Shown here: piece after piece, positions 22,651 through 50,369 of the stretch
How the letters are laid out: each line of letters opens with the position of its first letter
Position numbering within the stretch: the first letter of the stretch is position 1
Assembly (NCBI GenBank): GCA_035283845.1
Contig: DATESZ010000155.1
Span: 1 to 55,239 of the forward strand
DNA length: 55,239 nucleotides
Direction of reading: 5' to 3'
Source of the DNA: Syntrophales bacterium
Lineage (GTDB): Bacteria; Desulfobacterota; Syntrophia; Syntrophales; JACQWR01
Translations under genes and position numbers: made by a program
Notes under the pieces: model-generated
What the model saw: only the letters and a program-made list of their open reading frames with translations
Database searches by the model: none
Told to the model about the DNA's origin: nothing

Positions 22651-22761
22651 AAATTGCTCCCCCTTGTTATCCTTAAGAGTTGGTCGTATACTTCCTTAAA
22701 GTATAGCACTAAAATAATGGGTTATTCAAGCATTATCTGCATGTTATTGTTAACTAAATTT

Positions 22762-24108: not shown

Positions 24109-24153
24109 AATCCCTTATCTCAACTGAACTGGTCGCCTTCTTAGTAAGCATAT

Positions 24154-25350: not shown

Positions 25351-25415
25351 GCAAATATGCTCCTAAAAACAGTAAGTGGCAGGGAGGAGGGGGGCATTTC
25401 ATATAAAAATTGTCA

Positions 25416-26270
25416 TCAGCGTCGCGATATCAATTCGATTATCTCGGATTTCGTCATCCTTTTGTCAGCCTCAATTCCCTTTTCGCTGCATATTTGCAAC
25501 AGATCGTTCTTTGTCAAAGTTTCCAGCTCAACAGTGGCCGCTGCTTCAGTTTCGGCTGCCGTCAATGTTGCACTGGCAAAGGGCGCATCCGATTCAGCCA
25601 TCTCTTTTGGCGGCTCCTGCTCCGGCGTTTCGGCTGCCTCCACAAGAATAACAGCAGATTCATCCGACTTGTTGTCTGTCGGCGCTTCGGCTTCCGGCTC
25701 CGCAGGTTCGGGAGCATCCGATGCCTGCTCCGGCGTCGGCGTTGCGGCCTCTTCCACAGCGACAGCTATTGTTTCTTCCGTCGCAGCGGCCATTGACGCT
25801 GAGCTGTCCTTCGGTAATTCAGTCATGTGTGATTCCTCTGTGTCCGCAGCCTGTTGTGCAGTCCGTTCCGGCATCGTCTTCACTCCCGCGGCAACAAGTT
25901 CTTGAGCCGCTTCTTTCTTGGCCGCGGCCGCTGCCTTTTCCTCTGCCTCAATTTCCTGGAGACGCTGTCTGATGTTATCTATTTCCGCCTGATGCTCGGT
26001 AACACGTCTTACCCCTGTCTTCGCGGCTGCCGAAAGATTTGTCCTGTCTTCTGACGTATCTGCGCGAAGCGCAACTTCCTTGCCTATCTCGAAGTACAGC
26101 CGCTCTATCTTCCTTTCATATTCTCTCAGCCGAGAACGGAGTGTTCCCTTTTCTCCGGGTAAAACAATGGTTTTGATCGAAGACGCCGCATCGTAAAAAT
26201 TCAAAAGCGCGGAGCCGCCAGCATTTAAAACCCGTGCTATGCCTCTGAGCAATACACCTCGCTGTTCCAT
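25416..26270 (-). CDS. Hypothetical protein with the RIxxLYxEIG motif, an acidic Ala/Glu/Thr-rich linker and a C-terminal Rho_N/SAP-like helix pair
   Basis: YERKIERLYFEIGKEVAL motif. C-terminus KNDLLQICSEKGIEADKRMTKSEIIELISRR resembles the Rho N-terminal/SAP fold pattern. Confidence 0.5.
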   Translation of the reverse strand: MEQRGVLLRGIARVLNAGGSALLNFYDAASSIKTIVLPGEKGTLRSRLREYERKIERLYFEIGKEVALRADTSEDRTNLSAAAKTGVRRVTEHQAEIDNIRQRLQEIEAEEKAAAAAKKEAAQELVAAGVKTMPERTAQQAADTEESHMTELPKDSSASMAAATEETIAVAVEEAATPTPEQASDAPEPAEPEAEAPTDNKSDESAVILVEAAETPEQEPPKEMAESDAPFASATLTAAETEAAATVELETLTKNDLLQICSEKGIEADKRMTKSEIIELISRR

Positions 26271-26290
26271 TAAGTCCCCCTTTCCTTTAT

Positions 26291-26389
26291 ATGAAAATCT
26301 CCCCCTCCCTTTATCCCTCCCCCTCGACGGGGGAGGGAGGGGTGGGGGTGATTCTCATGCTTCGTTAATCCAACCCCAAGCATGGGTGT
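26291..26389. repeat. Palindromic intergenic element, type B copy
   Basis: atgaaaatct + ccccctccctttatccctccccctcgacgggggagggaggggtgggggt (49 bp, identical to 33404..33452) + attctcat + stem catgctt...aagcatg + ggtgt. Lies just 3' of the parB-like stop. Confidence 0.85.
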
Positions 26390-26391
26390 CG

Positions 26392-27036
26392 TTATATGAT
26401 AAGCTCATCGATGATGTTTAAAAGATTTTGCAATTCCAGCAAAAGCTGGGTTTTCAGGCATTGCCAGCCTGGGTCAAATTTATCATAATGCCGACATTCA
26501 TCCTGTGTCTTCTCAGGTAAACGATTAAGTTTTATTGCCGCGGAAATAGCCGGCTGCGCTTTGCCAATGGCAACAGCGAGTTTTTCCTCGGTATAGCCGT
26601 GCTGCTCCATCATACAGCCCAGGGCCGCGGCCTCTTCCACAGGTTTGAGGTTTTCACGCTGCAGGTTCTCAATCAGCGAGATTTCCAGGGGATTGCCCTC
26701 GGTAAAAATGGCCGGGATCTTCTCCAGACCCGCCATTTTTGCCGCTCGCAAACGCCTGTTGCCGGCCACTAAAATGATCTGACCAGTTTTGGCTTTACGG
26801 ACGATAACGGGCTGGTACAACCTGTTGTGTTTGATCGAGTTGGCCAGCCCTTCGAGAGCTACCGGGTCAAAATATTTTTCCGGCAGTTCCGGGTCGGTAA
26901 GAATCAGGTTAATGTCCAACAGGTAATAACTGCCCTCCCGGCAGTCGTTCAGAATGGCCGGATGATCTTCCTGCCTTGGTCTTTCCTGTGCCAGCTTGGT
27001 TGTTTTGCCGGCTAATTTACTTCTAATGTCTGTCAT
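26392..27036 (-). CDS. parB: ParB/Spo0J-family protein (ParB N-terminal domain + HTH)
   Basis: LVAGNRRLRAAKMAGLEKIPAI (arginine patch, GxRRxRA), ISLIENLQRENL, HTH YTEEKLAVAIGKAQPAISAAIKLNRLP. ATGA overlap with the upstream parA. Confidence 0.8.
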   Translation of the reverse strand: MTDIRSKLAGKTTKLAQERPRQEDHPAILNDCREGSYYLLDINLILTDPELPEKYFDPVALEGLANSIKHNRLYQPVIVRKAKTGQIILVAGNRRLRAAKMAGLEKIPAIFTEGNPLEISLIENLQRENLKPVEEAAALGCMMEQHGYTEEKLAVAIGKAQPAISAAIKLNRLPEKTQDECRHYDKFDPGWQCLKTQLLLELQNLLNIIDELII

Positions 27037-27788
27037 AGGCTTAGAAACTCACTAACAAGTTGTTCATAATCCTGTGAGCCGAGGCTATCGAGTTTGAAAT
27101 CGAAAATCGGCTCCTGGGCCATTTGGGATTGATTCAGGGCTTCATTGCGTCTGATATAGGTATTGAGGATCAAGTGCTTAAAAGGCTCTAACTGCTGGAA
27201 TACCCAGTCATTACTGATTTTGTTTCTGCTGTCGTACTTGGTCAGGAGGATCCGGATAAAATCGGTCTTGTTAAAGTCGCTGTTTTTTACATGTTCGATG
27301 GTTTCCATCAGATCGGCAAAACCGTCCAGGGCGTAGCGTCCCATTTCGCAAGGGACAATGATAAAATTGGCGGCATATAAGGAGTTGATCGTCAATGTTC
27401 CCAGGGTAGGCCGGCAGTCAATGACAATATAATCAAAATCAAGACCGTCAATGGCTTTTTTCAATAGGGTTTCTCTGAAAAGTTCCGGAGCTAATTGCTG
27501 CTCAATCTTATCGAGGTGGATATGTGAGGGGACAATAAACAGATTATCGGCTTTTGTCGGCAGAATCGCATCTCCGATAGGCTTTTTCCTGGCCAGGACG
27601 TCGATGATCGAGGCGGTAAAGCTCTCCGGCTCGATTCCTATGCCAATCGTTGAATGGGCCTGGGGGTCCATGTCAATTAACAAGGTCCTTTTGTCTTGCC
27701 GGGCCAGGCCTGCCGCAAAATTGATTGACGTAGTCGTCTTGCCCACTCCGCCTTTCTGATTGATGATGGCAATGATGTTTTTATTCAT
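27033..27788 (-). CDS. parA: ParA/Soj-type partition ATPase
   Basis: IIAIINQKGGVGKTTTSINFAAGLA (deviant Walker A with signature Lys), LLIDMDPQ, YIVIDCRPTLG (Walker B). Confidence 0.9.
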   Translation of the reverse strand: MNKNIIAIINQKGGVGKTTTSINFAAGLARQDKRTLLIDMDPQAHSTIGIGIEPESFTASIIDVLARKKPIGDAILPTKADNLFIVPSHIHLDKIEQQLAPELFRETLLKKAIDGLDFDYIVIDCRPTLGTLTINSLYAANFIIVPCEMGRYALDGFADLMETIEHVKNSDFNKTDFIRILLTKYDSRNKISNDWVFQQLEPFKHLILNTYIRRNEALNQSQMAQEPIFDFKLDSLGSQDYEQLVSEFLSL

Positions 27789-27791
27789 ATC

Positions 27792-28697
27792 CTACAGCAC
27801 ATCTATGAGAAGCCGCAAGGCCAGAACAAATATACCCAGGGCAATAATTTTTTTTATGACCGAGGGGTGCGTCTTGAGTGAGAGATGCGCCCCCCAACTG
27901 GCGCCCAGGATCGTACCGGTACCCAGAAGAACGGCATAATCCAAATCTATGTAGCCAAGTCCGACAAAAGCGATAAAGCCGAAAAAACTCGTGACGGCCA
28001 GGATAAAATGAGATGTCGCCGTGGCTATATGAACCGGTATTCCCAGCACGGAATACATGAGGGGAACATGAATGACTCCCCCTCCGATCCCGAAGAGGCC
28101 TGAAAATATACCGATTAAAATACTGGCGGAAAAACCTACGGCCATGTCCGGCGCATAAGAATATTCCTCGCCCGCGGCATCCTTTAGATATCTCGTTATC
28201 GGCGCTTGCGCGGCTTTCGTCCTGACCAAGTAAATTTCGTTTCCGGAAAACAGGTAATAGGACAAGACAATTAGCAACAAACTGAAAATTAGGGAGAAGC
28301 TGCTGACAGTGAAAAACTGTGACAATAATGCCCCGACAAGGACGCCGGGGCTTGCGGCGACGGCGTACTTGATGCCAATTTCAAAATCGATCCGTTTCTG
28401 GGCGATATAGGCAAAGGTGCCGGATATCGCATTCAGCATGACAACCGCCATGGACGTGCCAATGGCATGCTGGGGTGAAAACCCGTAGAAAATAATGAGC
28501 ACCGGCACGTGGATGAAACCTCCGCCGGCGCCAATGAGGGTGCCGACAATCCCAATCAGGACGCCGGTATGAAAAACGATAATGGCCCCCAGAATACCCA
28601 GCGTCGCGTGTTCCGCGGTAATGGGCTGCGCCGCCATGGCGCTGCCTGCCATGAGAAAGATCATCCATCCCAGTAAGGTCGATAGCAGAATTTTCAA
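27792..28697 (-). CDS. TauE/SafE-family membrane transporter (mamO C-terminal-domain-like)
   Basis: Polytopic membrane protein with duplicated Gly-rich helices: GTLIGAGGGFIHVPVLII and GLFGIGGGVIHVPLMY. The TauE-like domain is the C-terminal half of MamO and is a separate gene in deep-branching magnetotactic bacteria (established knowledge, recalled). ATGA overlap with the upstream gene. Confidence 0.7.
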   Translation of the reverse strand: MKILLSTLLGWMIFLMAGSAMAAQPITAEHATLGILGAIIVFHTGVLIGIVGTLIGAGGGFIHVPVLIIFYGFSPQHAIGTSMAVVMLNAISGTFAYIAQKRIDFEIGIKYAVAASPGVLVGALLSQFFTVSSFSLIFSLLLIVLSYYLFSGNEIYLVRTKAAQAPITRYLKDAAGEEYSYAPDMAVGFSASILIGIFSGLFGIGGGVIHVPLMYSVLGIPVHIATATSHFILAVTSFFGFIAFVGLGYIDLDYAVLLGTGTILGASWGAHLSLKTHPSVIKKIIALGIFVLALRLLIDVL

Positions 28698-29584
28698 TGG
28701 GTTGCCCTAAACCGTTCCTTGAAAGTGCTATAAGCCTGCACAGCCTCTTGAAAATGAATCTTTGCCTCTTCCTTCAGCCCCTCGGAAGAAAACCTGTCCG
28801 GATGAAACGCAACTTTCAGGAATTTATAGATCCGATCTATGCGAGAAGGATCGGTTTCAGCGTCAAACCAGGGAAAATTCCGGGGCTGTCGATGGTCGCG
28901 AAGGTTCTCCTCCTGCCCGCCGCCGGATTGAAGCATAATCAGCTTCAGGTCATAGGTATGCTCCTGCATATCGTTTATATTGAGAACCAGTTCATATAAG
29001 GACATTTTTTCCTTCTTTATCTCGTCATCCAGCAGCTCTGTTTGTCTTTTCAGCACCGCTGCTGCCCGTGCAATTTCCCGATCATTGACATTAACCAGTT
29101 CCTGCAGGTGGTTTCTCAATTCATGGGCAAGGAAGGCCAGGGATATCTTCCTTTCTTCCTCATCCATACGTATTTTTTTCCGCAAAGAACTGAGCTGCGC
29201 TTCCACGGCGCTGCTTTCAAAACTTTTCAGTCTATTCTTCAAAACCGACTCGCGCTCAGAGATCCGATCCCTTTCTTCTTTCATTTCTCGCAGAGTCTCT
29301 TCCAGTCGCTTGATAATGACGGCAAACGCCTCTTTCTCGGCGCGCACTTCCTGAATCGAGCGCAAATAGCCCTCCATGAGGACATATTTGGCAATCAGCA
29401 TCCCCGCCGCCAATGAGGCCGCAATAGTCGTATAAATATGCGCTGTTGCCTTTAACTGGCCGGGAAATATGGCCGGGTAACGGGCATGGATCAACCAGCA
29501 AAGCCCTCCGGCGATGGCGGAGAAGTAAGCCAGTTTATCGGTAAAAGACGATTTTAAGATGCGAAATAGCAATTTCATAGGCAT
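28694..29584 (-). CDS. Membrane-anchored coiled-coil protein with a C-terminal J domain
   Basis: Two N-terminal TM helices and a central coiled coil. The C-terminal IDRIYKFLKVAFHPDRFSSEGLKEEAKIHFQEAVQAYSTFKERF contains the HPD tripeptide. Confidence 0.65.
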   Translation of the reverse strand: MPMKLLFRILKSSFTDKLAYFSAIAGGLCWLIHARYPAIFPGQLKATAHIYTTIAASLAAGMLIAKYVLMEGYLRSIQEVRAEKEAFAVIIKRLEETLREMKEERDRISERESVLKNRLKSFESSAVEAQLSSLRKKIRMDEEERKISLAFLAHELRNHLQELVNVNDREIARAAAVLKRQTELLDDEIKKEKMSLYELVLNINDMQEHTYDLKLIMLQSGGGQEENLRDHRQPRNFPWFDAETDPSRIDRIYKFLKVAFHPDRFSSEGLKEEAKIHFQEAVQAYSTFKERFRATH

Positions 29585-29604
29585 TTAATAGACTCCCTAT
29601 CTGG

Positions 29605-30723
29605 TCAGCTCGCAGAATTTTTTGTCCAGGGCGCGTTTTTTGCCGCAGCGACCATTCCACTCCACATCTGCGTGAAAAATCGAGTTGTAAAAAATGTAGC
29701 ATTTCTGAAGATGTTTTCATTGCCGACGTCATATATTTCAATATTTCCCCCTCCGTACGCTAAAGAGGCGCTGGCGCCATCATGATCGATAAAAACGACA
29801 TCGGGACGGCGTTTAAGGCTAACGGTTTTAACGGTGAGCCCGGTCGTGCAATCGATCATGGTCATGGTTTTGTTTTCTTTTAAGAACAATCCCCATTTCC
29901 CGTCAGGCGCCAAATCAAATGCGTATATCCCCTGAGTATTGAAAGGGATGAATTCCCTTCTTCCGTAAGGAGATCGCAAAGTATGGAGTCCATTTACGGA
30001 CATCCAGGCGAAAAGGTTATCGTTTATCTTTTTTAAATCAACAGCGCCGATGTCATCCAGACTGGAGGCCTTTTTTCTGCTTTTCCAGTCATATAAAGAA
30101 AGGGTGTCCGTCTGAAGAACATAGCGGTCCTCAAGGAAAAAGACACCCCTCGCGCCGGCGCTGTTTTTGGAAAATATGGAAACGGCCTGGTTTTCTGCCA
30201 AATCCCACACCTTGATATTGCCTGTCCCGGTGAAAACAAGATATCTGCCGCTCTGATCCAAATCCATGGAGATGACTGGTTCTTGATTGTCTATCCGCAA
30301 GGTCAGATCTCCCGTCTCGATAGCGAATATCCTGATGCTTCCCTTGCCATCGGCCGTCAGACCGCATCCGGCGATGGTTCCTTTTCCCGGCATAAAGCGC
30401 AATTGCGAAACCTGGAATCCCTCGCCGGCGTCAATCTCTAAAAACGGCTGCTCATCGGGCAACTGCCATAATTTGATGCGCCCCTCTTCTCCCGTGGCCG
30501 TAAGATTTTTGCTGGAGCTGTAGTCTATCGCGCCGGTGCTGCGCAAGCCGGCAAGCACGTGCGAGGGCGAAAGCGCAAGCGACGGTATTTCGCCGGCCCG
30601 ATTTTTGGCCGTCTTTGCATGCCCAGGGAAGACATAGGCATAGGGGAGATCGGGTTTTACCGCCATCGTGACTGCGGCAACCAGAAAGACTATAAATATT
30701 ATATATTTGACGATCGCATTCAT
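29605..30723 (-). CDS. Signal-anchored WD40-like beta-propeller protein
   Basis: N-terminal TM/signal helix. Recurring strand motifs IKLWQL, IRIFAI, IKVWDL, LSLYDW and IEIYDV at about 40-50-aa spacing. ATGA overlap with mamQ. Confidence 0.55.
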   Translation of the reverse strand: MNAIVKYIIFIVFLVAAVTMAVKPDLPYAYVFPGHAKTAKNRAGEIPSLALSPSHVLAGLRSTGAIDYSSSKNLTATGEEGRIKLWQLPDEQPFLEIDAGEGFQVSQLRFMPGKGTIAGCGLTADGKGSIRIFAIETGDLTLRIDNQEPVISMDLDQSGRYLVFTGTGNIKVWDLAENQAVSIFSKNSAGARGVFFLEDRYVLQTDTLSLYDWKSRKKASSLDDIGAVDLKKINDNLFAWMSVNGLHTLRSPYGRREFIPFNTQGIYAFDLAPDGKWGLFLKENKTMTMIDCTTGLTVKTVSLKRRPDVVFIDHDGASASLAYGGGNIEIYDVGNENIFRNATFFTTRFFTQMWSGMVAAAKNAPWTKNSAS

Positions 30724-31397
30724 CGGACGTCGGGGACCTTTTTAGCCGATTTCTCGGATTCAAACGTCTTTTCCGGGCCAAACCTCATCACGAATCCGAA
30801 AATGATGCCCGGAAACATCCTTAACCGCGAATTATAGTAATTTGCCGCCATGTTGTACCTTATCCTCGCACTGGCAATCCTCGTCTCCGTATCGGACAGT
30901 TCCTTCATGAGGTTCTGATAGGTCGCAGAGGCCTTAAGGTCGGGATAGTTCTCGGCGACGGCCTGAAATTTGGAAAGAGAGTTCTGCATGCTCAAGGTCG
31001 AAGGCGATGCCTGGGGGATGCTTTTCAACGAATCCAAAGCGCTCCTTACATCGGCGGCGTGCTGAAAGATCTTATTTTCAAAAGCCATATAATCATTGAC
31101 GGCCTTCACGAGGTTAGGAATCAGATCATTTCTGCGCTGCAATTCCGCTTCGATCTGCGTCATCTCCAGGCGCGTCTTGTAGTACTCCACGGTAAAATAG
31201 TTGTAATAATAAACAGAGGCTGACAGAAGGGACAGAAACAAGGCCGTCATCGCTATCTTCATTGCCGCCGACTGACTGCTCCATACCCTGTGCTTGAGGC
31301 GCGCTACATGGTCCGCCCACTTTTCCTGGATCGTAGCAGGCATATCGGAAATAAGGCCTAATTCTTTGGCATACAATTTCTTGATGACTTCTTTCAT
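30720..31397 (-). CDS. mamQ: LemA-family protein, MamQ-like
   Basis: One TM helix, then LQRRNDLIPNLVKAVNDYMAFE and C-terminal YNMAANYYNSRLRMFPGIIFGFVMRF, both classic LemA patterns. Confidence 0.8.
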   Translation of the reverse strand: MKEVIKKLYAKELGLISDMPATIQEKWADHVARLKHRVWSSQSAAMKIAMTALFLSLLSASVYYYNYFTVEYYKTRLEMTQIEAELQRRNDLIPNLVKAVNDYMAFENKIFQHAADVRSALDSLKSIPQASPSTLSMQNSLSKFQAVAENYPDLKASATYQNLMKELSDTETRIASARIRYNMAANYYNSRLRMFPGIIFGFVMRFGPEKTFESEKSAKKVPDVR

Positions 31398-31406
31398 TGT
31401 CCGTTA

Positions 31407-33116
31407 TTAACCTTTTACCGTAATATACAGGGGATCGCCCAAACGAATAACGTCGAGGAGAAATCCTTTTTTAACGTCCACCTTCTTCGTCAGTTCAATG
31501 AATGAATTCATATCGGTCACCGGGGTATTATTCACACCCTTGATAATGTCTCCCGATTTGACGCCGGAGGCCGCCAGCAGGCCTTCCGCCTCGGCGATAT
31601 ATACGCCTGACTTATCGGGGGGCAAGGGGGTTATTTCCGCGCCCAGCCAACTGAACTCTTTCGGCTGTTTGATCGGAGTTCCTGCCGCCGCCTGTGCTGC
31701 CAACCCCTGCGTCGTTTTGACCTTGATGGTTTTTCTGGCGCCAAACCGCAAAACCACCAGATCAATGGCGGTCCCGCTTTTTGACTCCAGAAGCTTCGTG
31801 AAGTTATTGCTGTCCAGAATCTTCCTGCCGTCTATCCTGATAATGACATCGCCCCTCTGCATACCTGCCGCATCAGCAGGCATGCCCGGAATGACGTTGT
31901 TGACCAGGACGCCGCCGCGGTTTATCATATTGTTCTGATTGGCAATCACATCATCTACATCTAAAACGGTTATACCCAGGGGAAAATTATTGTACGGCGT
32001 TTTGGGACTGGCAACGTTCAACACCTGCCCCGGAGCAGAATTTTTCGACAAAAATCCCTGTGAACGCAACTGTGGATGACAGTCGCAACAGACCCCCCGG
32101 TACTGATGCGGCGGGGTAATGACCTGCCCGTCACGCAACCGGTAGGCGTTGCCTATCTGCCGGGCATTTATCCTCCAGGCGGCAAGCTGACCGTTGGCGA
32201 CAGGGGTGAGTTCGTTTCCGAAGTCGAGAACGCCGCCCATAAGCTCCAACGACCTGTTGATGGGAACGGCGAAACTTACGCCGGCGAATGCCCCGCTCGG
32301 CGAATAAATTGCCGTATTAATCGCGATGACATCGCCCTTAGCGTTGATCAGCGGTCCGCCACTGCTCCCCTTGTTAATGGCCGAATCGGTCTGGATCAGG
32401 TTCTCATAAACTATCCCGCCGACATTGAGGGTCCTGTTCCGGCTGCTGATGATGCCGGATGTGACAGACTGGTCAAAGCCAAAGGGGCTGCCCATGGAAA
32501 TAACGACATCGCCTGTTCTGATAGAATTGGAATCCCCCAGACTTGCATGGGGGAAAGGTCCGTCCCCTTGTATCCGCAAAAGGACGAGATCGGAAGTCCG
32601 GTCTCCCTTAACGATCTTGATCGGGTATTCAAGCGCTCCCGCGGGGCCGTAAACAGTGGCCTTAAGGGAAGACGCCCCGCCCACAACATGGAGGCTGCTC
32701 AGCGCATATCCCCTGGGATCAATGATCACGCCCGAACCTATTCTGGCATAATTGGCGATAGGCTCTCCGGCGTTGGCATTTTGATCCTGCATTACTGCGT
32801 CAATACTGATGACCGCAGGTCTAACACTTTCAATAATGCCATGGTAGGAAGTTTGAAGCGCTCTTGCGGACTCAGGCGCGGTAACGGTGTTCAATGCGGA
32901 CTGCTTACCGAATCCGCCTTTATCGTCCCATTTGTTTTCCGTAAAGAATCGCCCAAAATAACCCCCTCTTTTCTGCGCCTCGTAGACAGACCAGACGAGG
33001 GTAATTATGACCATTACCACCAGCGCCAATATCCAGGGCTTGAAGTTATTCGGACAACTCTCCAAAGGCTTTTGAGAGTTTTTTCCTATGTCATCAGATG
33101 TTTTTTCCGTCCCCAT
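31407..33116 (-). CDS. mamE: MamE-like HtrA protease: TM, trypsin-like domain, one magnetochrome motif, two PDZ domains
   Basis: Catalytic residues in SSLHVVGG (His), TSDLVLLRI (Asp) and NKGSSGGPLIN (Ser). PPHQYRGVCCDCHP (CXXCH). PDZ-like PGMPADAAGMQRGDVIIRIDG and AASGVKSGDIIKGVNN. Confidence 0.85.
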   Translation of the reverse strand: MGTEKTSDDIGKNSQKPLESCPNNFKPWILALVVMVIITLVWSVYEAQKRGGYFGRFFTENKWDDKGGFGKQSALNTVTAPESARALQTSYHGIIESVRPAVISIDAVMQDQNANAGEPIANYARIGSGVIIDPRGYALSSLHVVGGASSLKATVYGPAGALEYPIKIVKGDRTSDLVLLRIQGDGPFPHASLGDSNSIRTGDVVISMGSPFGFDQSVTSGIISSRNRTLNVGGIVYENLIQTDSAINKGSSGGPLINAKGDVIAINTAIYSPSGAFAGVSFAVPINRSLELMGGVLDFGNELTPVANGQLAAWRINARQIGNAYRLRDGQVITPPHQYRGVCCDCHPQLRSQGFLSKNSAPGQVLNVASPKTPYNNFPLGITVLDVDDVIANQNNMINRGGVLVNNVIPGMPADAAGMQRGDVIIRIDGRKILDSNNFTKLLESKSGTAIDLVVLRFGARKTIKVKTTQGLAAQAAAGTPIKQPKEFSWLGAEITPLPPDKSGVYIAEAEGLLAASGVKSGDIIKGVNNTPVTDMNSFIELTKKVDVKKGFLLDVIRLGDPLYITVKG

Positions 33117-33128
33117 AATAAACCGCTC

Positions 33129-33362
33129 CTACTCGTCTTTTTTCTTTGTTGTCGGCTCAGTTGCCTTTGGCTTGTTGTTTCTCTCCATGAGAGTTGCTCT
33201 CAGTCCCGTGTTTTTTATGCCCGCCAGCAGGGCTATGATCCCAAAAAACAGAAGCACCAGAGGAAATATCGCAATGATGACGTCCACGGTATACCACCAG
33301 TAGGTCACCAGTCCCCAGATCCCCAAGCATATCGCGACAAGAGCGAAAACGATGTTTATCAT
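33129..33362 (-). CDS. mamI: MamI-like small two-TM protein
   Basis: 77 aa. ALVAICLGIWGLVTYWWYTVDVIIAIFPLVLLFFGIIALLAGI matches my recollection of the MamI pattern (LGxWGL..WWW, then a second TM helix). Positioned between mamA and mamE. Confidence 0.6.
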   Translation of the reverse strand: MINIVFALVAICLGIWGLVTYWWYTVDVIIAIFPLVLLFFGIIALLAGIKNTGLRATLMERNNKPKATEPTTKKKDE

Positions 33363-33395
33363 AATAATCTCTCCTTCTTTCTTTATTGTCTTTAT

Positions 33396-33490
33396 TGAAA
33401 ATGCCCCCTCCCTTTATCCCTCCCCCTCGACGGGGGAGGGAGGGGTGGGGGTAGTGTTCATCCTTCGTTATACCCGACCCGGGCATGGGG
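33396..33490. repeat. Palindromic intergenic element, type B copy
   Basis: Shares a 49-bp identical core with 26301..26349 and has the same tail architecture (cat ccttcgtta...gggcatggggg). Lies between the mamA stop and the mamI start. Confidence 0.85.
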
Positions 33491-33545
33491 GCTACTGGTT
33501 GAATATTCTCTTCTTATCAATTTATCAATCGGCTTTTTTATACTG

Positions 33546-34193
33546 CTATTTGCCGCCACGCCTCTCTTCGATATCAATGGCCTTCTTGAAATACTTCACC
33601 GCCTCGTCCCGCATCCCCTTCGACTCGTAGGCAAAACCAAGACTCTGATAGGCCCTCACAAAATCGGGACTGAAGGAGATCGTCTTCAGATAGGCCTCAA
33701 TGGCCTGGTCATGTTCGGAACGGGCATCAAAGATGAGGCCCGTCTTGTAATACGCCTCGGCATAGCCGGGATTGAGTTCCACGGCTTTCTTGAGGGCATC
33801 CATCGCCTCCTTGTTTTCGTCGAGTGCAAAATGAGCGGAACCCAAAAGATAAAAGGCCTGCGCAATACTGTTGTCGAGCACCACGGCCTTTTTTAAGGCC
33901 TCGCTTGCTTCTTTGAACTGGCCGGCCTGAACGTACGCCTTGCCTAGCTTAAAAAGCGCATTAACGTTGTTCGGCTCTGAGGCGAGCATTTTCTTATAGA
34001 TATCCACCGCCCCTTTATAGTCTCCTTTTTCCTCCATTTCCTTGCTGATTTCCAGGAATACCTCCTTTGATTCCTCTGGATTGAGGGTAAACAGGCTGTT
34101 GTATTTATCGACCGACCGGTCCAGAAATTTCTTAAAGTTTATGGCTAACGCCTTGCCCAGGTACTTCAACTCGCTTGTGTTAATAACTTCCAT
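33546..34193 (-). CDS. mamA: TPR-repeat protein, MamA-like
   Basis: Five or more TPR units (GDYKGAVDIYKKMLASEPNNVNALFKLGKAYVQAGQFKEASEALKKAV...). I set the start at the ATG at 34193, preceded by GGGAGGGG, giving 215 aa. The track start at 34247 lacks an RBS. Confidence 0.75.
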   Translation of the reverse strand: MEVINTSELKYLGKALAINFKKFLDRSVDKYNSLFTLNPEESKEVFLEISKEMEEKGDYKGAVDIYKKMLASEPNNVNALFKLGKAYVQAGQFKEASEALKKAVVLDNSIAQAFYLLGSAHFALDENKEAMDALKKAVELNPGYAEAYYKTGLIFDARSEHDQAIEAYLKTISFSPDFVRAYQSLGFAYESKGMRDEAVKYFKKAIDIEERRGGK

Positions 34194-34290
34194 GTTGCCC
34201 CTCCCGTAAACTATTAGACTGTAGCCTGTTAAGCTGTGGACTGTCATGCTGTAGGCTATTATAGCCTTACAGCCTATCTACCTTAAGTAG

Positions 34291-35184
34291 TCAGTAGGTT
34301 CCGAACCTCGTCTTTTTGACAGGGAAGCAGCTTACCGATATACCACAGACTTTCTTCATCTTTTCAACGATTGCTTCCTTTACCTTTTCCCCGATCATAT
34401 GGGTTTCCAGGATAGATTTCTTCTCGGAAACATCAATAATCAAATCGATCCAATTCTTCTGACCCATACACCTGGTGTGGATAGATCTGACTCCTTCAAC
34501 CCCCTCCACGGTAAGGCTTGTCTTCACGGCCTGCTCAATTATCTCTTTATCGGCAGCGGAATCTATCAGGCCATGAATGCCCTGAAGAAACATTTCCATG
34601 CTCATGTGATAGATCAACAACGCCACAACAGCGGCTGCAATGGCATCGGCATAAATGAAACCCAGTTTGGTCCCGATAAGGCCAAGCAGCACGGCCGCCG
34701 ACGAAAAACTGTCCGCCTCGCTCTCATAAGCGTCCGCTATGATCGCCGGGCTGCCGAGTTGCGTACCGGCGCATACATTTGATCTGTACATGAGATAGCT
34801 GTAGCACAAGCACACCAAAGTGGCAAGTATGGCGGCATTATGAGGAATCTCATGAATACCGTATATTAGCGCCTTCAGGGTATCCAGCAGTATGAGCGAG
34901 GCGCAGACAAAAAGGATGGTGGCGGCAAAAAGGGTGCTGATGTATTCCACCTTGCCATGGCCGTAAGGGTGCTCCTCATCATGAGGCTTTTTCGCTATCC
35001 TCAGCGCTAGGAGGATAAAAGCGGAAGCGAAAGCATCGGCGACGGAATGCACTCCGTCTGCTACCAGCCCTTTGCTGACCGTCACCATTCCCACAAAAAT
35101 CTTAAAAAACGCCGCAATGATATTCCCTACCAGGCTCATCCGGGGAGACAACTTCCCGCATCTTGCGCATTCATTGTACTTCAT
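34291..35184 (-). CDS. mamB: Cation diffusion facilitator, MamB-like
   Basis: N-terminal CARCGK (CxxC), TM2 LVADGVHSVAD (DxxHxxxD), HPYGHGKVEY, TM5 ADAYESEADSFSS, C-terminal cytoplasmic domain. 297 aa. Confidence 0.75.
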   Translation of the reverse strand: MKYNECARCGKLSPRMSLVGNIIAAFFKIFVGMVTVSKGLVADGVHSVADAFASAFILLALRIAKKPHDEEHPYGHGKVEYISTLFAATILFVCASLILLDTLKALIYGIHEIPHNAAILATLVCLCYSYLMYRSNVCAGTQLGSPAIIADAYESEADSFSSAAVLLGLIGTKLGFIYADAIAAAVVALLIYHMSMEMFLQGIHGLIDSAADKEIIEQAVKTSLTVEGVEGVRSIHTRCMGQKNWIDLIIDVSEKKSILETHMIGEKVKEAIVEKMKKVCGISVSCFPVKKTRFGTY

Positions 35185-35253
35185 CGTAACGCCGCTCTTT
35201 GCAATATCGTTCTTCCTGAATCCTTCATCCTTCAGTTTACTTCCCTGCAGCCT

Positions 35254-35811
35254 TTAGTTATAATTCAGAGACGCGTAATTCAGAGGCCCCTGCAGGAAAG
35301 GCTGCTCCCTGAAACCGAACAATGTCGCCAGAATCTTGTGCGGAAAAAGGCGACACGTCACATTATAGTTGTATGTCCAATTATTATAATTTAGCCTCTC
35401 TGCGGTTACCTTAAACCCAGTTTCCTGTATAGTTTCCATCAATAACACATAGGGCCCTTTGGATTTCAAACCCGGATACTTTTCTATCAAAAGATCAAGC
35501 TCTCTGATCAGCCTGATAATATGCAAACCTTCGCTCTTTACGATTTGCGTCTCTGTACCATGCGTCTTGGTCAGTTTGTGCAGCGCAATCAGACGATCCT
35601 GGATTTTTTCCTCCAGGGTCGCGTACATCGCGACGACATTCCGGCATCTGGAAAGAACAACCTGCTTCCGCTGCATTTCAACCAGCAGCCTGCCGTGCGC
35701 TACCTGAACAAAGTGCTTCATATCTACCAGCTCATTGTAAGTGCGCAAGCCGAATACAAAAAATGCTATCAAGACAACAGCGGCTACCTTAACTGCATAC
35801 ATGCACTTCAT
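35254..35811 (-). CDS. Divergent LemA-family protein (second MamQ-like paralogue)
   Basis: N-terminal TM helix. The C-terminal YNNWTYNYNVTCRLFPHKILATLFGF is the LemA C-terminal pattern; the central region is diverged. ATGA overlap with the upstream CDF gene. Confidence 0.65.
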   Translation of the reverse strand: MKCMYAVKVAAVVLIAFFVFGLRTYNELVDMKHFVQVAHGRLLVEMQRKQVVLSRCRNVVAMYATLEEKIQDRLIALHKLTKTHGTETQIVKSEGLHIIRLIRELDLLIEKYPGLKSKGPYVLLMETIQETGFKVTAERLNYNNWTYNYNVTCRLFPHKILATLFGFREQPFLQGPLNYASLNYN

Positions 35812-36716
35812 GGCATATAGGGTTCGATGGAAACGGATACATTAGCAATATTTTCTAAGGTTTGCATAATGCTCCCCTTTACATGGAGGCCGATCATATA
35901 CCCTTCGCTGGCAGACTTGTTGTAATCTACCTTAATGGTTATATCAATCCATCGATCCTGACCCAACTGACGGACATCAACATTTTTCACCTTGCGGACA
36001 CCGGGGACAAGCTGGACGATCGATTCTATTTCGGATCTGATCTCGAAATTAACCGAGCGGTCCATCACTCCATTGAGACCATCTTTAAGCATCCCGCCGC
36101 TTAAACGCATCAGATCCAGCGTTTCGATAACCGCAACCAGCGGGTCAAGAAACAAGAGACCTATGTTGGATCCGATGATGGCCAGCACAACAAAAAACGA
36201 AGAAAAGGTGTCCGAATGATGATGCTTCGCATTTGCCAGAATTGCGGGGCTGTTTCGCCTCGTCCCGACGCAATGCAAATACCTGTAAAGCTTATAGTTT
36301 GCAATGACCGATATACACCCCGCCCAGAGGGCGGTCAGTTTCGGTACCTGAATCTGTCCGTACAGGCCCGCCCATACATCCCTGATGGAATGGACAAATA
36401 GGAACAGGGAGGCAATAAAAATGGCAACCCCGATAAACAGCATCGCCACGAATTCAATCTTGCCATGTCCATATGGATGCCTCACGTCAGCCGGTCTCTC
36501 TGAAACCCTGATGCCAATCACCACAACCAGCGATGTTACAAAATCCTTGAACGAATAAAGTGAATTGCCCAGGATTGCCTTGCTGCCGCTTACAAAACCA
36601 ATAAAGGCCATAAAGGCCGCGAGCATGAGATTGAGAAGAGTGGCCACCAGCAGGGCCTTTTTACCGCAACTGGCGCAATCATTATTATTCAAAAATTTTA
36701 AAGCACTACGTGACAT
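35808..36716 (-). CDS. mamM: Cation diffusion facilitator, MamM-like
   Basis: N-terminal CASCGK (CxxC), TM2 GNSLYSFKD (YxxxD), HPYGHGKIEF, TM5 ANAKHHHSDTFSS (HxxxD). I set the start at the ATG at 36716 (19-nt overlap with mamP). The track start at 36851 would overlap mamP by 154 nt. Confidence 0.75.
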   Translation of the reverse strand: MSRSALKFLNNNDCASCGKKALLVATLLNLMLAAFMAFIGFVSGSKAILGNSLYSFKDFVTSLVVVIGIRVSERPADVRHPYGHGKIEFVAMLFIGVAIFIASLFLFVHSIRDVWAGLYGQIQVPKLTALWAGCISVIANYKLYRYLHCVGTRRNSPAILANAKHHHSDTFSSFFVVLAIIGSNIGLLFLDPLVAVIETLDLMRLSGGMLKDGLNGVMDRSVNFEIRSEIESIVQLVPGVRKVKNVDVRQLGQDRWIDITIKVDYNKSASEGYMIGLHVKGSIMQTLENIANVSVSIEPYMP

Positions 36717-37585
36717 TTTGTGCAGGTTCCTCTGTTCCTGTGAGGGGGCGGCGTACCCATGCGGATATTCGGAGCAACCTTTGTCAGGGCATCGCCCTGG
36801 TCTTTCAGCAGTTGATTGGAATTCAGGGCCGTCCTGGAAATAGCATGGCATCTGTCACATGGCCCAAGGTAGCCGTGGGGGCTTTTTGCTGTGGCCAGGA
36901 TCATCGGCGCCGCCTCCATCTGAGCTATTCCCAAAGCCTCGGTACTGAAAACCAAAATGTTTATATATTTGCCGCCACGGTAAACTGATAGGTTTACCCG
37001 GTTTGACTGGGCCAAATCTTTGGTCGCCAGCCGGAACGACTTAAGGTCATTTATCTTCCTGTCGTTCACTGCCGTGATGACATCCCCCGCATAGAGCCCC
37101 GCTTCCGCCGAGAGCAGCGTCACTTCATCGATCAGGACCCCCGCCACGTCCGGCGGTATGAAATTTGCCTCAGCGATCGCCGGTGTTAAAGGAATGACCT
37201 CCATCCCGATCCAGTGTCCTTCCTGTAGCGTCTTATCCGGGAAGGCGATAGGCGGCAGAGGGACGTTCTGATCCGGCTGGACCGGAAGAATGATATCCCC
37301 ATTCCCCTGCGGCGGATCGAGCTGGTTCGGCTGCTGAACCGTATTCTCATGGTTTTGCTGTATACGCTGGTTGATGGGGTCCTGTTTCTGGACAACGGGT
37401 CCGGCCAAAGCAACAATATTGGGGTCTTTCGGAGTCACCTCGTCCCAGTCCTTTTCCTTTATTGCTGACGGCGCCATTGAGGAAAGGGGTGTGGCCCCTC
37501 TCAAATAAACGAAATAGACGTACAGGAACGCACAAACCAGCAGTATAACTACAACCGGATGGGCGATACGCGTAAGATGTTTCAT
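36698..37585 (-). CDS. mamP: MamP-like protein: TM, PDZ domain, two magnetochrome CXXCH motifs
   Basis: PDZ-like AEAGLYAGDVITAVNDRKINDL. SPHGYLGPCDRCHAI and PPHRNRGTCTKCHVV both fit PHxxxGxCxxCH. Confidence 0.85.
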   Translation of the reverse strand: MKHLTRIAHPVVVILLVCAFLYVYFVYLRGATPLSSMAPSAIKEKDWDEVTPKDPNIVALAGPVVQKQDPINQRIQQNHENTVQQPNQLDPPQGNGDIILPVQPDQNVPLPPIAFPDKTLQEGHWIGMEVIPLTPAIAEANFIPPDVAGVLIDEVTLLSAEAGLYAGDVITAVNDRKINDLKSFRLATKDLAQSNRVNLSVYRGGKYINILVFSTEALGIAQMEAAPMILATAKSPHGYLGPCDRCHAISRTALNSNQLLKDQGDALTKVAPNIRMGTPPPHRNRGTCTKCHVVL

Positions 37586-40504: not shown

Positions 40505-41326
40505 TCACAATTCAATCATGTTGTTTTCGATAAGCCATCTTTCCTGAAAAGCGCGCCTTGCCGCCCAACCAACATCATTAATGAACCAGGCGTTAACGGA
40601 CCCCCCGACAGCGGCGCCGATGGCCGGGATAGCCTGCATGACCTTTCGCTCGGTGATATTGACTCCCAGTTGTCTTCCTAAACTTTTCATGCCAATAAGC
40701 ACAGATTCTTTAACTAATTGCTGTTGCGCAGCCTTCTCTGCTACCGTCTTCAGCGTCTGTTTGGCGATCATCACATCTATCGCCCGCAGTATTTTGACCG
40801 CATCGGCTTTTTCACTTGCCGTGTTGGCGCCGGCGGCGGATAAAAGCGCTAAAACAAAGTACCTGCCTTTTTCATCTTTGTTCTTGTATCCATAACAGAG
40901 GCCTATTTTGTGAATTGTCCTCAAGGCGAAAGTAATGATGAAAGGAATATCCAGCACCAATCCGTAGATCCCCCACATGCCTGAACCAACGCCTTCTGCA
41001 GATGCCACGCCGATTGCCCAGTTGTGAATTTCATTGGCTAATTTATCTGACAGCATAAGGTCTTTTTTTTTCAATTCATAAATTTCCGACACCCCTCCTT
41101 TTCTCGTGACATCGCCTTCGTCGGCCAACCATTCCGCCACCGAACTTGTACCGCCGATGGCATCCCGGATGGCCGACTGAGGTACGACAGCTTGAATGAG
41201 CATGGATATCGGAAACATCACGCAACCTAACGCGGTGCCGACAACGCTCGGTTTTTCCTTACGCCATTCTTCTATCGCGCGTATCTGCTCCTTTTCATAT
41301 TCACCGGGGTTGCTCGTGATTGCCAT
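40505..41326 (-). CDS. EcsC-like family protein (tentative)
   Basis: GMWGIYGLVLDIPFIITFALRTIHKIGLCYGY and the surrounding helical layout resemble the EcsC-family core. Called by pattern recall only. Confidence 0.4.
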   Translation of the reverse strand: MAITSNPGEYEKEQIRAIEEWRKEKPSVVGTALGCVMFPISMLIQAVVPQSAIRDAIGGTSSVAEWLADEGDVTRKGGVSEIYELKKKDLMLSDKLANEIHNWAIGVASAEGVGSGMWGIYGLVLDIPFIITFALRTIHKIGLCYGYKNKDEKGRYFVLALLSAAGANTASEKADAVKILRAIDVMIAKQTLKTVAEKAAQQQLVKESVLIGMKSLGRQLGVNITERKVMQAIPAIGAAVGGSVNAWFINDVGWAARRAFQERWLIENNMIEL

Positions 41327-41372
41327 GGTACTCGCAAAGCTCCTCGAGAGACAGGCGGGATTGCCTACCCCT

Positions 41373-42035
41373 TTATATCTTCAATCCATAGATGCCCATG
41401 GCAATATCCTGTTCCAGGGCTATCTGGGTATTCTCAATCTGAATGACATAAGCGGGAAATTTTTGGCGGATTTTTATCTTTTTCCCGGGAGACACGCCAA
41501 AAGAAACCAGTTTGCCGATCAAGACCGGGTCAGCTTTTCTGATAAAGGATATTCTGACCTCATCGCCTATATCCAGGGAATCGAGAGATTTAACAAACGT
41601 TTTTACAGAATCTTCAGCCCTCTTGCAGCAATCCCCTTCCGGTATCGGGAAACCGTGGGGACATTCCCGCGGGTGGCCAAGCAAGGTGCAGATCGCCTCG
41701 GTAAGACCGGGCGCCAGTGTATGCTCATACTCGCAGGCCGACTCCTCCATTTCCCCAAACATCATCCCCAGGACATCGACAAGCAGCCTTTCGGCCAGTC
41801 TGTGCCTGCGTATGATAGGCTGCGCCTGCTCTTTTCCCTGGGCTGTGAGAGTGATCTCCGTGCCGCTTATTTTCACGAGGCCGCTTTTTTCCAGCTCCGA
41901 TAAGATTTCGTCATCCACAATATATCCATAGGCGCCCTCATGTTCCTTCAATACGTTTTCTACCGTGCATCTTCCCTTTTCCTCCAACGTCCAGACAGTC
42001 TCGATCGTTTCAGCCGTTACATCTACAATTTTCAT
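41373..42035 (-). CDS. DtxR-family metal-dependent regulator fused to a FeoA-like C-terminal domain
   Basis: Winged-helix N-terminus, dimerisation/metal region RRHRLAERLLVDVLGM...ESACEYEH, and a C-terminal SH3-like segment GDEVRISFIRKADPVLIGKLVSFGVSPGKKIKIRQ (FeoA pattern). Confidence 0.75.
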   Translation of the reverse strand: MKIVDVTAETIETVWTLEEKGRCTVENVLKEHEGAYGYIVDDEILSELEKSGLVKISGTEITLTAQGKEQAQPIIRRHRLAERLLVDVLGMMFGEMEESACEYEHTLAPGLTEAICTLLGHPRECPHGFPIPEGDCCKRAEDSVKTFVKSLDSLDIGDEVRISFIRKADPVLIGKLVSFGVSPGKKIKIRQKFPAYVIQIENTQIALEQDIAMGIYGLKI

Positions 42036-42045
42036 ATGCCACCCC

Positions 42046-43992
42046 TTAAAAAGAGAAATTATTCCACTGGAAAAAATAGTTCATGATTCCCCCGGTCATA
42101 ATGGCGCAGGCGGTAACGGAAAGAATAATGGCCAGTGCCTTCTTCGCTCCCTGTTCCTTGATAATGAGCAAGAAGTTTGCTACACAGGGGATAAAAAGTA
42201 TCGTGACAATCATCGCTACCACCAGTTGCCGATTATCCATGACGCCGGTGTCCACCAATTTTTTGAGCACTGCTATGCCTGCCTCTCCCCTGATGAAGCC
42301 CATAATCAGGGATTCGGCAAACTGCGGCGGCAGCCCCATAAAGCCTTTGACGACAGGCGCAAAGAAGTTCTCCAGATAAACCAAAAGACCGATCTTTTCT
42401 ACCAGAAAAAGTCCCAGCGCGCCGATGACGAACAGCGGCAGCGCCTCCCGGAGAAACAGCAGCGACCGGTAGGAAGTCTTTTTTATAATATTTTGCATGC
42501 TCGGAATGCGTATCGGAGGAATTTCCATGATAAAATAGGAAGGATCTACCGTCATCAGCCTGCTCAGGATAAAACCTGCGGCAATAGTAAGAGAAAAGAC
42601 AACCCCGAACACCACGAAAAAGGCAGCGAAAGAAACCTGCGCCAGAATAACCAAAATCATACTCAATTTTGCTGAACAGGGAATGCCCAGCGAAAGCAGA
42701 AAGATGGCGATAAACCGTTCTCTTTTGCTGTCCAGCACCCTGGTGGATAGTGTAGCCATGGTGACACAGGAAAAGCCGAGCACCATCGGCAGCACGGCCT
42801 TGCCGTTTAGACCTATTTTACTGAACAATCTGTTGAGCAGGATGGATAGCCGGGTAAAGTATCCCGAATCCTCAATAAAACCAAAGGTAAAGAAGAAAAC
42901 AACAATCACCGGTAAAACCAGGCCGAGAAGTGGAACAATCGCCATGGCGTAGAGACCGTACTCTCCCATAATAAGCTCCCTCGCCGGGGCGTATGGTATC
43001 ATTACCACGATATTATTAAGAAATGAGGCCACGACGAGGCCAAAAAAATCTTTCACTAAAAAGTCAACTAAATAACCTGCGGCAAATTTTCCCACAATAA
43101 AATACAGCACTACCAGCATGATAAAGAGGATCAGAAAACCGGCAATCGGAGTCAAGGCCATATTGCCTATCCTGTCTAATAACAGCGTGGAGGAAATTGG
43201 TGTGAAATAGATTGACTCGGTGAATACTGCTTCTGCCCAGGCATTGTTAGCCCGGTAAATAATCAGATCAAGTGGCTGGTACAGTGATTTCTTGGCCTCA
43301 GCCATGCCGCTCCGGGCGGCATCGTTATTATTGAGCGCGCTTATCTGCTGGGCCCAGCGTGCGGTCTCCTGCTCATCGGCAAGAGAGAAAAGCGACAAGG
43401 CCCGTTTTTTCCATTCCGGTTGCCTCTCGTCAGGCATAAGCGCCGTCAGACGCTGCATCGCATCTGTCAGAACGAAAGGCAACCGGGAGGGAAAGGATGG
43501 TATCCGGGCCGTGCCTAAGGCCGTAATAAGCGCGGCGATGCCAGCGCCTTCCGATGCCACCGTTTCGATTACGGAGGCGCCCAGCATATCTTCCAGTTTA
43601 TGCCGCTTGACCTTAATCCCCTTCTGGGCGGCTTCGTCAACCATATTCAAAACAAGCACCAGGGGAAGGCGAAATTCTGCCAACAATGCAGTAAGCGCCA
43701 ATGATCGTTTGATATTTTTTGCATCAGCGACTTGCACAACCAGGTCAGGCGTCTCGTCAATCAGGATATTCCGCGCCACCTTTTCATTATCAGCGTTGGA
43801 AAGCAGATTATACACGCCTGGAATATCAATTATTTCGATATTGTCCCCTTCGACCTTGAGGGCGCCTCTTTTGATCTCCACGACGGTGCCGGGGTGGGTG
43901 GAGATACTGACTCTGTCGTTGATCAAGCGGCTGAATACGGTGCTTTTACCGACATTCGGCAGGCCTAATAGCAAAACTCTCTTCAATATCAA
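42046..43992 (-). CDS. feoB: Ferrous iron transporter FeoB
   Basis: G1 LLGLPNVGKSTVF, G3 DIPGVY, G4 NMVD, followed by about 10 TM helices. Confidence 0.9.
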   Translation of the reverse strand: MILKRVLLLGLPNVGKSTVFSRLINDRVSISTHPGTVVEIKRGALKVEGDNIEIIDIPGVYNLLSNADNEKVARNILIDETPDLVVQVADAKNIKRSLALTALLAEFRLPLVLVLNMVDEAAQKGIKVKRHKLEDMLGASVIETVASEGAGIAALITALGTARIPSFPSRLPFVLTDAMQRLTALMPDERQPEWKKRALSLFSLADEQETARWAQQISALNNNDAARSGMAEAKKSLYQPLDLIIYRANNAWAEAVFTESIYFTPISSTLLLDRIGNMALTPIAGFLILFIMLVVLYFIVGKFAAGYLVDFLVKDFFGLVVASFLNNIVVMIPYAPARELIMGEYGLYAMAIVPLLGLVLPVIVVFFFTFGFIEDSGYFTRLSILLNRLFSKIGLNGKAVLPMVLGFSCVTMATLSTRVLDSKRERFIAIFLLSLGIPCSAKLSMILVILAQVSFAAFFVVFGVVFSLTIAAGFILSRLMTVDPSYFIMEIPPIRIPSMQNIIKKTSYRSLLFLREALPLFVIGALGLFLVEKIGLLVYLENFFAPVVKGFMGLPPQFAESLIMGFIRGEAGIAVLKKLVDTGVMDNRQLVVAMIVTILFIPCVANFLLIIKEQGAKKALAIILSVTACAIMTGGIMNYFFQWNNFSF

Positions 43993-50243: not shown

Positions 50244-50369
50244 TTCGTCAAGAATGGCGCCTTGAATTTATTGACAGGGGTAGAAAAAATATATAAAACA
50301 GGCGCACCCAGAAGTGGCTGCCTGCAGGTTGCGGCGGCTCGTCGCGGATCATAAAAAATTTGCTGTGGG

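Follow-up and report, generated by a model that had tools for sequence, protein, structure and literature searches.

Genes for MamP and a MamE-type protease, the latter with a putative divergent magnetochrome unit, in a Nitrospirota-style magnetosome cluster from a Syntrophales-like host

Since magnetochromes are, to our knowledge, the only redox proteins dedicated to magnetosome biomineralisation, their correct identification matters for annotating the magnetosome clusters of uncultured lineages. A contig assigned to a Syntrophales bacterium (GenBank assembly GCA_035283845.1, contig DATESZ010000155.1; its 55,239 nucleotides are hereafter the window) raises this very question. Two of its minus-strand genes, one for an HtrA-type protease and one for a PDZ protein, carry between them three CXXCH motifs, and an earlier note, made from the letters alone, took these for c-type haem sites of the magnetochrome kind and not for generic cytochrome c sites. 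Are they magnetochromes, and in which proteins do they sit? Our analysis puts at roughly 85% the probability that the PDZ gene is mamP and the protease gene mamE, both part of a Nitrospirota-style (man-type) magnetosome cluster, belonging to an uncultured host whose nearest relatives are Syntrophales or Deltaproteobacteria metagenome-assembled genomes (MAGs), where MamP would be a ferroxidase by homology and MamE a competent protease with one divergent magnetochrome.

The open reading frame listing and motif scan place a single CXXCH in the MamE-like protein of 569 aa, in the context TPPHQYRGVCCDCH (C343..H347), and two in the MamP-like protein of 295 aa, SPHGYLGPCDRCH (C243..H247) and PPHRNRGTCTKCH (C288..H292), all on the minus strand and all with the Pro-His, the Gly and the spacing PHxxxGxCxxCH that the earlier note had read off; beyond these sites no CXXCH is present in any open frame of more than 70 codons in the window. 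In fact the six-frame translation contains the core PH-x3-G-x-C-x2-CH 3 times, and each of 200 block-wise, composition-preserving shuffles contains it 0 times, so the pattern is real and lies far beyond chance. Moreover, all three units contain the minimal magnetochrome (MCR) unit, in which a [P/T/H]-His precedes CX2CH by 5-9 residues, here as PH-x5-CXXCH, and this upstream [P/T/H]-His is the sixth haem ligand (Arnoux 2014, PMC3971196).

On homology and family profiles, the PDZ protein is MamP with two bona fide magnetochrome units. The Pfam family MCR (PF18509, gathering threshold 30.4 bits) matches it in two stretches, scoring 51 bits on the full protein and 56 bits on its C-terminal segment, and both units follow the full published pattern P-x(0,6)-[IVMLQA]-x6-[PTH]-x(0,2)-H-x(1,3)-[GN]-x(1,5)-C-x2-C-H-x-[IVMLFY], whose closing hydrophobic residues are called psi1 and psi2 (Arnoux 2014). 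In a phmmer search of the PDB, residues 114-294 align with MamP of strain MO-1 (4JJ0/4JJ3) at E=2.4e-38, the PDZ domain and the two haem units all being in register, and Foldseek with the AlphaFold2 (AF2) model ranks the 4JJ0 and 4JJ3 chains first (E=2.5e-14), ahead of the PDZ domains of HtrA proteins. The best NCBIfam family is likewise MamP (NF040965, 215 bits over model positions 38-289 of 290), and the order of parts is that of MamP: an N-terminal anchor, one PDZ domain and tandem magnetochromes at the C-terminus. Among 66 homologues the PDZ residues E122, H124, W125, E129, D153, E154 and D168 are invariant, being identical in 4JJ0 also, and so is the magnetochrome PH, while two CXXCH are kept in 112 of 120.

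The protease is a MamE-type HtrA with an intact catalytic triad. The three contexts that the earlier note had taken as evidence of an intact triad, SSLHVVGG (His143), TSDLVLL (Asp176) and GSSGGP (Ser252), are all found, and they align with the catalytic residues of the DegP-like and MucD structures; among 120 MamE homologues the His is conserved in 119, the Asp in 120 and the Ser in 119. The trypsin-like domain with this His-Asp-Ser triad is followed by PDZ domains, with a putative c-type haem unit inserted between them, and the NCBIfam model of MamE (NF040960) aligns continuously over residues 123-374 with 250 bits. Around the gene the synteny mamA-mamI-mamE-mamQ is present, as in Nitrospirota magnetosome gene clusters. 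Three of the homologues bear degenerate variants, namely P0052 with CADWH in place of CXXCH, P0055 with Arg for the catalytic His and P0030 with Cys for the catalytic Ser; errors of sequencing or decay of the copies may account for them.

The haem unit of MamE calls for a closer argument. It is extended, with about 45 residues against 20-28 in a canonical magnetochrome, and about 25 residues upstream of the core, GQLAAW..GRQ.GN.YRLP.GQ, are conserved together with it. All 120 homologues carry the unit (one of them as the CADWH variant) with an invariant PH, and 48 diverse MamE units all share the residues N, P, H, G, C, C and H. A 29-column profile of the unit, searched with hmmsearch against 177,635 distinct PDB sequences, has 4JJ0 MamP as its sole match (E=0.0018), falling on MCR1 and MCR2; an hhalign comparison with the profile of MamP MCR1/MCR2 gives 97.1% probability and E=6e-11 over 17 in-register columns; and in a search of 1.84 billion representative proteins with a 52-column profile, the full-length matches are MamE-type proteins, while the proteins matched in several stretches by the core only are short ones, in which Pfam MCR is above threshold in 10 of 10 scanned. 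As these three independent profile tests agree with a conservation such as is expected for a bis-His haem c site, we take the unit to be a divergent magnetochrome, which would bind haem covalently. The claim of magnetochromes, not generic cytochrome c, has thus stood, for MamP through PF18509 and 4JJ0 and for MamE through the three profile tests; of the checks proposed in the earlier note, the scan with a magnetochrome hidden Markov model succeeds for MamP and fails for the MamE unit, and the alignment puts the MamE unit in register with the MamP units and these with 4JJ0. Among the matches to the 52-column profile were also long multi-repeat proteins (1,000-2,400 aa), which we rejected as relatives. 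They match only profile positions ~10-36, and in the 4 that were scanned Pfam shows no MCR but CHU_C, myosin or miscellaneous domains; we regard such matches to the hairpin-like extension as owed to repeats or composition.

Several results weigh against the identification of the two genes as mamP and mamE with three magnetochromes. PF18509 has no match on the whole MamE protein at E<=0.01, the isolated 69-residue segment matches no Pfam family even at E<=10, and PF18509 is recorded for 0 of the 120 best MamE homologues. The unit also departs from the full pattern of Arnoux 2014, having no leading Pro or psi1 and ending in CH-P-Q-L instead of CH-x-psi2; that pattern is said to recover 'almost all' magnetochromes, and the MamE unit of M. 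bavaricum is still counted as one (PMC3971196). The AF2 model of the 52-residue unit has a small beta-hairpin upstream and a short helix at CXXCH with a predicted local distance difference test score (pLDDT) of 70-82, and Foldseek finds for it nothing in the PDB below E=4, where it should be considered that AF2 models no haem and that this mini-fold depends on haem. In MamP the pLDDT falls below 50 in the magnetochrome region, as is expected where a fold exists only around the haem, which AF2 lacks. Both proteins stay below the equivalog cut-offs of their families, MamP with its 215 bits against 300 and MamE with its 250 bits far below 800; the generic Do-family model, at 275 bits, likewise stays under its own cut-off on MamE, and for MamP the shortfall probably means that this lineage has diverged from the sequences on which the model was built. 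Finally, no haem-maturation genes are on hand for this sequence.

The first rival explanation, which we hold very improbable, is that the CXXCH segment of MamE is not a haem site at all but a Cys/His metal-binding site, a thiol-disulfide element or a vestige, which resembles a magnetochrome since a short CXXCH is easily matched. The absence of a Pfam match and of the full pattern would fit this, as would the extra Cys adjoining the first Cys, the lack of a structural match and the loss of the second Cys in P0052. However, 120 homologues with identities down to ~40% keep the spacing PH-x3-G-x-C-x2-CH unchanged, and the invariant distal His would be needless for a disulfide or a zinc site. Moreover the profile picks out MamP alone from a PDB holding very many CXXCH cytochromes and zinc sites, the core matches across the protein library are Pfam-MCR proteins, and the extra Cys is not conserved. 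Very improbable too is that the MamE unit represents a separate, convergent family of mini-cytochromes, sharing with the MamP magnetochromes only the functional PH...CXXCH core of haem ligation. In favour of convergence, the similarity is limited to the 17 columns, the flanks differ (the 25-residue extension and a C-terminal PQL, against AP.I...CH-V-I), and Arnoux 2014 argue that magnetochromes cluster by host protein (PMC3971196); yet the match in register takes in the non-ligand Gly and positions where Arg or Tyr is frequent, the NCBIfam MamE model, although built on MamEs with two magnetochromes, runs unbroken through the unit to residue 374, a relative with the full unit (P0241) scores 26 bits on Pfam MCR, and both types of unit occur together in one organelle system. 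That the motifs arose by chance or are generic cytochrome c sites with no link to magnetosomes, for which only their shortness speaks, is already refuted by the homology of MamP to the solved 4JJ0 structure, the MamP-only match in the PDB and the shuffles, besides the confinement of CXXCH in long frames to these two genes and their place within a collinear mam cluster.

Taking the MamE unit as a divergent magnetochrome, two of its features may be placed in the lineage as a whole. One is its singleness. The earlier note had set one unit here against two in Magnetospirillum, and these counts are right, two being confirmed for classical Magnetospirillum MamE (PMC3971196), but the implied oddity is not: a single unit is normal in this lineage, being found in 104 of 120 homologues against two units in 16, a Trypsin-MCR0-PDZ MamE was listed in 2014 for Ca. 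Magnetobacterium bavaricum (Arnoux 2014 Table 1 and Discussion, PMC3971196), and a single magnetochrome is present also in MamE of RS-1 and BW-1 and in MamE' of SS-5 (PMC3971196). The other is the extra Cys of C-C-D-C-H, which is indeed there but is hardly unusual. The X1 position of CXXCH in the 120 homologues is T in 38, L in 30, I in 20, V in 16 and C in 8, then E, F, Y, A or G, and among relatives at 75-81% identity CCDCH, CLDCH and CFDCH take turns. As X1 varies so freely, even among close homologues, the extra Cys is a tolerated substitution and no motif, and we discard it as a mark of some special haem-attachment chemistry.

In the homologues with two units (P0006, P0060, P0064, P0065 and P0084-P0119) it is the whole unit of ~44 residues that is repeated. 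Within one protein the two copies are 63-85% identical in P0006, P0060, P0064 and P0065, and 37-46% in a Desulfuromonadales-type group, while between the groups the second units are just 44% identical. From these identities within and between the groups, the whole unit seems to have been duplicated independently at least twice, consistent with the published proposal that tandem magnetochromes have arisen repeatedly from a lone one. Perhaps, then, and we offer this only tentatively, the MamE unit is a distinct extended subclass of ~45 residues that the domain models miss, made of a hairpin-like N-terminal extension and a haem core ending in CHPQL, and is the ancestral 'lone' magnetochrome that gave tandem ones by repeated duplication; the apparent duplications are consistent with such an ancestry. 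If so, the lone haem of a single-unit MamE could be a redox sensor gating an active protease, and not part of a two-electron relay. What follows for annotation is more immediate, for PF18509 passes over the MamE haem unit without warning throughout the lineage, and automated annotation will therefore under-count magnetochromes.

The observed domain architecture, motif conservation, homology and synteny allow a mechanism to be proposed. MamP, anchored by one N-terminal helix, would expose its PDZ domain and two mono-haem c units of ~23 residues to the magnetosome lumen, dimerise and oxidise Fe(II), so setting the Fe(II)/Fe(III) ratio for magnetite, as may be expected from its homology to the MO-1 protein; the oxidation would proceed through two exposed haems above the crucible of the PDZ dimer (PMC3971196). 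MamE would be a membrane-anchored and catalytically competent HtrA, whose divergent unit (MCR0) follows the protease domain and precedes the first of its two PDZ domains, with haem presumably bound covalently by Cys343 and Cys346 and ligated axially by His347 and His337. It would process magnetosome proteins, as its homologues do, and the lone haem might serve as an accessory redox input or an electron relay. The ferroxidase activity of MamP is published, and MamE haem-site mutants make small crystals (PMC3971196); in the work of Quinlan 2011, as summarised in PMC3971196, such mutants complement partially and protease-dead MamE does not. In Magnetospirillum, MamE is an active protease on which proteolysis of MamE, MamO and MamP depends, and it depends in turn on the TauE domain of MamO (PMC4794232). 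From these published roles we propose the same division of labour here, with MamP as a probable oxidase, MamE as a probable processing protease and the stand-alone TauE protein as a likely activator of MamE.

Which known systems does the locus resemble most? The closest homologues of both proteins are metagenomic, and those that bear labels are from MAGs of Deltaproteobacteria or Syntrophales, among them Syntrophales bacterium LBB04, that is, Ca. Belliniella magnetica; a near-identical contig exists in the ENA assembly ERZ27254836. LBB04 combines a Nitrospirota-like magnetosome gene cluster with a Thermodesulfobacteriota host (Uzun et al. 2022, PMC9376291). Its MamE (P0057) is 66% identical over 85% of the query and shares the VCCDCH variant, and its MamP (P0129) is 68% identical, yet the present lineage differs at species level, and its cluster is contiguous over a much longer stretch than in the fragmented LBB04 assembly (PMC9376291). 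MamE of Ca. M. bavaricum has the same architecture, with a single magnetochrome between protease and PDZ domains (PMC3971196), and the same gene order, but here X1 of CXXCH is Cys and the host, judging from the labels of the nearest homologues, appears Syntrophales-like and not Nitrospirota. MamE homologues of Nitrospirota (for example P0076, P0115 and P0117) have the same PPH..RG.C..CHPQL unit at 47-48% overall identity. MamP of the ovoid magnetotactic strain MO-1 (Siponen et al. 2013), the top structural neighbour at ~39% identity, likewise has the PDZ domain followed by two magnetochrome units, whereas here a long Pro/Gln-rich linker of low confidence (~residues 37-100) lies between anchor and PDZ.

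MamE of Magnetospirillum magneticum AMB-1 (amb0963) is also an HtrA with an active triad, c-type haem units ahead of the PDZ domains and a membrane anchor (PMC3971196; PMC4794232), but it has two magnetochromes and its paralogue amb0410 four (PMC3971196), against one unit here. It is partnered with the pseudoprotease MamO, and proteobacterial magnetosome islands are reported to pair an active with an inactive protease (Hershey et al. 2016), whereas among the open reading frames scanned across the window (1-55239) no second trypsin-like gene was found besides mamE itself. A MamO-like function would seem to be represented only by the stand-alone TauE protein, with no visible pseudoprotease partner in the window. 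DegP, DegQ and MucD align with MamE over the protease and two PDZ domains at E values of ~1e-46 to 1e-40, with the triad conserved; unlike them, MamE here has an insertion of ~80 residues with the CXXCH unit between protease and PDZ1, an uncleaved N-terminal anchor and a place in a magnetosome cluster.

The cluster itself is collinear with known ones (Table 1). The Pfam families LemA, Cation_efflux, TPR and TauE are found in it, and the order from mamP to mamO-Cter is that published for Nitrospirota magnetosome gene clusters (PMC8353452; PMC9376291). Upstream of the core are feoB, a DtxR/FeoA gene, an EcsC-family gene and a von Willebrand factor A (vWA) gene, and past the TauE gene are ParA/ParB, sensor kinases and a HEAT-repeat protein.

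Table 1. Positions in the window of mamP, mamE, their parts and the other genes of the cluster
Feature	Position (nt)	Strand	Description and basis
mamP	36698..37585	-	295-aa membrane-anchored PDZ protein with two magnetochrome units; NCBIfam MamP, 4JJ0, Foldseek
MamP N-terminal hydrophobic anchor, ~residues 8-28	37502..37564	-	IAHPVVVILLVCAFLYVYFVYL; AF2 helix 10-28, pLDDT 81-91
MamP PDZ domain, ~residues 120-215	36941..37228	-	Pfam PDZ_2 1.3e-09, residues 126-209; AF2 pLDDT >90
MamP magnetochrome unit 1, residues 227-250	36836..36907	-	PMILATAKSPHGYLGPCDRCHAI; CXXCH nt 36845..36859; Pfam MCR stretch 227-249; Arnoux pattern; aligned to 4JJ0 MCR1
MamP magnetochrome unit 2, residues 272-295, C-terminus	36701..36772	-	PNIRMGTPPPHRNRGTCTKCHVVL; CXXCH nt 36710..36724; second Pfam MCR stretch; Arnoux pattern; aligned to 4JJ0 MCR2
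mamE	31407..33116	-	569-aa HtrA/DegP-family protease with one putative magnetochrome unit between protease domain and PDZ1; Pfam Trypsin_2 and PDZ
MamE N-terminal hydrophobic anchor, ~residues 27-47	32976..33038	-	PWILALVVMVIITLVWSVYEA; segment conserved in homologues
MamE trypsin-like protease domain, ~residues 123-300	32217..32750	-	aligned to DegP-like (22kg) and MucD (8k2y)
MamE triad codons	His143 32688-32690; Asp176 32589-32591; Ser252 32361-32363	-	
MamE extended, putative magnetochrome unit 'MCR0', residues 305-356	32049..32204	-	core ITPPHQYRGVCCDCHPQ nt 32070-32120; CXXCH nt 32076-32090
MamE PDZ1, ~residues 376-468	31713..31991	-	Pfam PDZ_2, PDZ_6, PDZ; aligned to DegP PDZ1
MamE PDZ2, ~residues 498-568	31413..31625	-	Pfam PDZ_1 504-546; MamP-model PDZ stretch 498-560; aligned to DegP PDZ2
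Core cluster	27792..36716	-	order from mamP: mamM, mamQ-II, mamB, mamA, mamI, mamE, mamQ-I, WD40-like, coiled-coil, TauE
mamM	35808-36716	-	NCBIfam MamM 351 bits, above cut-off
mamQ-II	35254-35811	-	MamQ best NCBIfam match
mamB	34291-35184	-	MamB best NCBIfam match
mamA	33546-34247	-	MamA best NCBIfam match
mamI	33129-33362	-	MamI best NCBIfam match
mamQ-I	30720-31397	-	MamQ best NCBIfam match
WD40-like gene	29605-30723	-	
Coiled-coil gene	28694-29584	-	
Stand-alone TauE / MamO-Cter-like gene	27792-28697	-	Pfam TauE

As a whole, the locus is an ordinary new member of a known magnetosome system, in which a single-motif MamE was described in 2014, and it leaves the current picture of MamP and MamE function unchanged; the description of the MamE unit as an extended magnetochrome subtype of ~45 residues is a modest addition. 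Moreover, the locus adds a Nitrospirota-style cluster in a Syntrophales-like background, which bears on the debate over transfer of magnetosome genes between phyla.

Some further observations concern the cluster and its flanks. The longest open reading frame of mamM shares 154 nt (36698-36851) with mamP at the 3' end of the latter, but probably the true overlap is only ~19 nt, because the family match begins at residue 57 and the near-identical ENA contig is called with a product of 302 aa, which places the start at 36716. Immediately upstream of the cluster (40505-43992, minus strand), feoB, a DtxR-type repressor fused to FeoA and the EcsC-family gene resemble the mad17/mad30 iron-uptake module, which in some lineages is compact with the main cluster. 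At the other end (21862-27788, minus strand), the TauE and HEAT-repeat (mad23-like) genes, which are adjacent in published Nitrospirota clusters, are separated by a ParA/ParB pair, a response regulator and two sensor histidine kinases, of which one has a cNMP-binding domain; the 22-26 kb stretch has a lower guanine-plus-cytosine (GC) content of 0.42.

Farther away, no canonical mamK is present in the window, and an actin-like protein (7520-8665, minus strand), which matches Pfam Volactin strongly (260 bits) and the MamK model weakly (22.8 bits) and has a ParA-like gene beside it (6292-7518, minus strand), may be a Mad28-like magnetosome actin. At 12218-14524 (minus strand) a protein of 768 aa has a receiver-like N-terminus, a long coiled coil that is rich in Glu, Lys and Arg and built of tandem repeats of ~70 residues, and no Pfam match, and its gene accounts for the extreme AT skew of -0.38 at 12-14 kb. 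A tRNA-Arg(ccg) at 50369-50445 (plus strand) stands just before the GC content rises to 0.65 in a Kelch-repeat gene (51563-53791, plus strand), and this jump may mark the boundary of a genomic island with the magnetosome cluster. Finally, CheB, CheR and a large hybrid GAF histidine kinase with three receiver domains (1096-6163, minus strand) flank the cluster and are a possible chemotaxis or signalling link.

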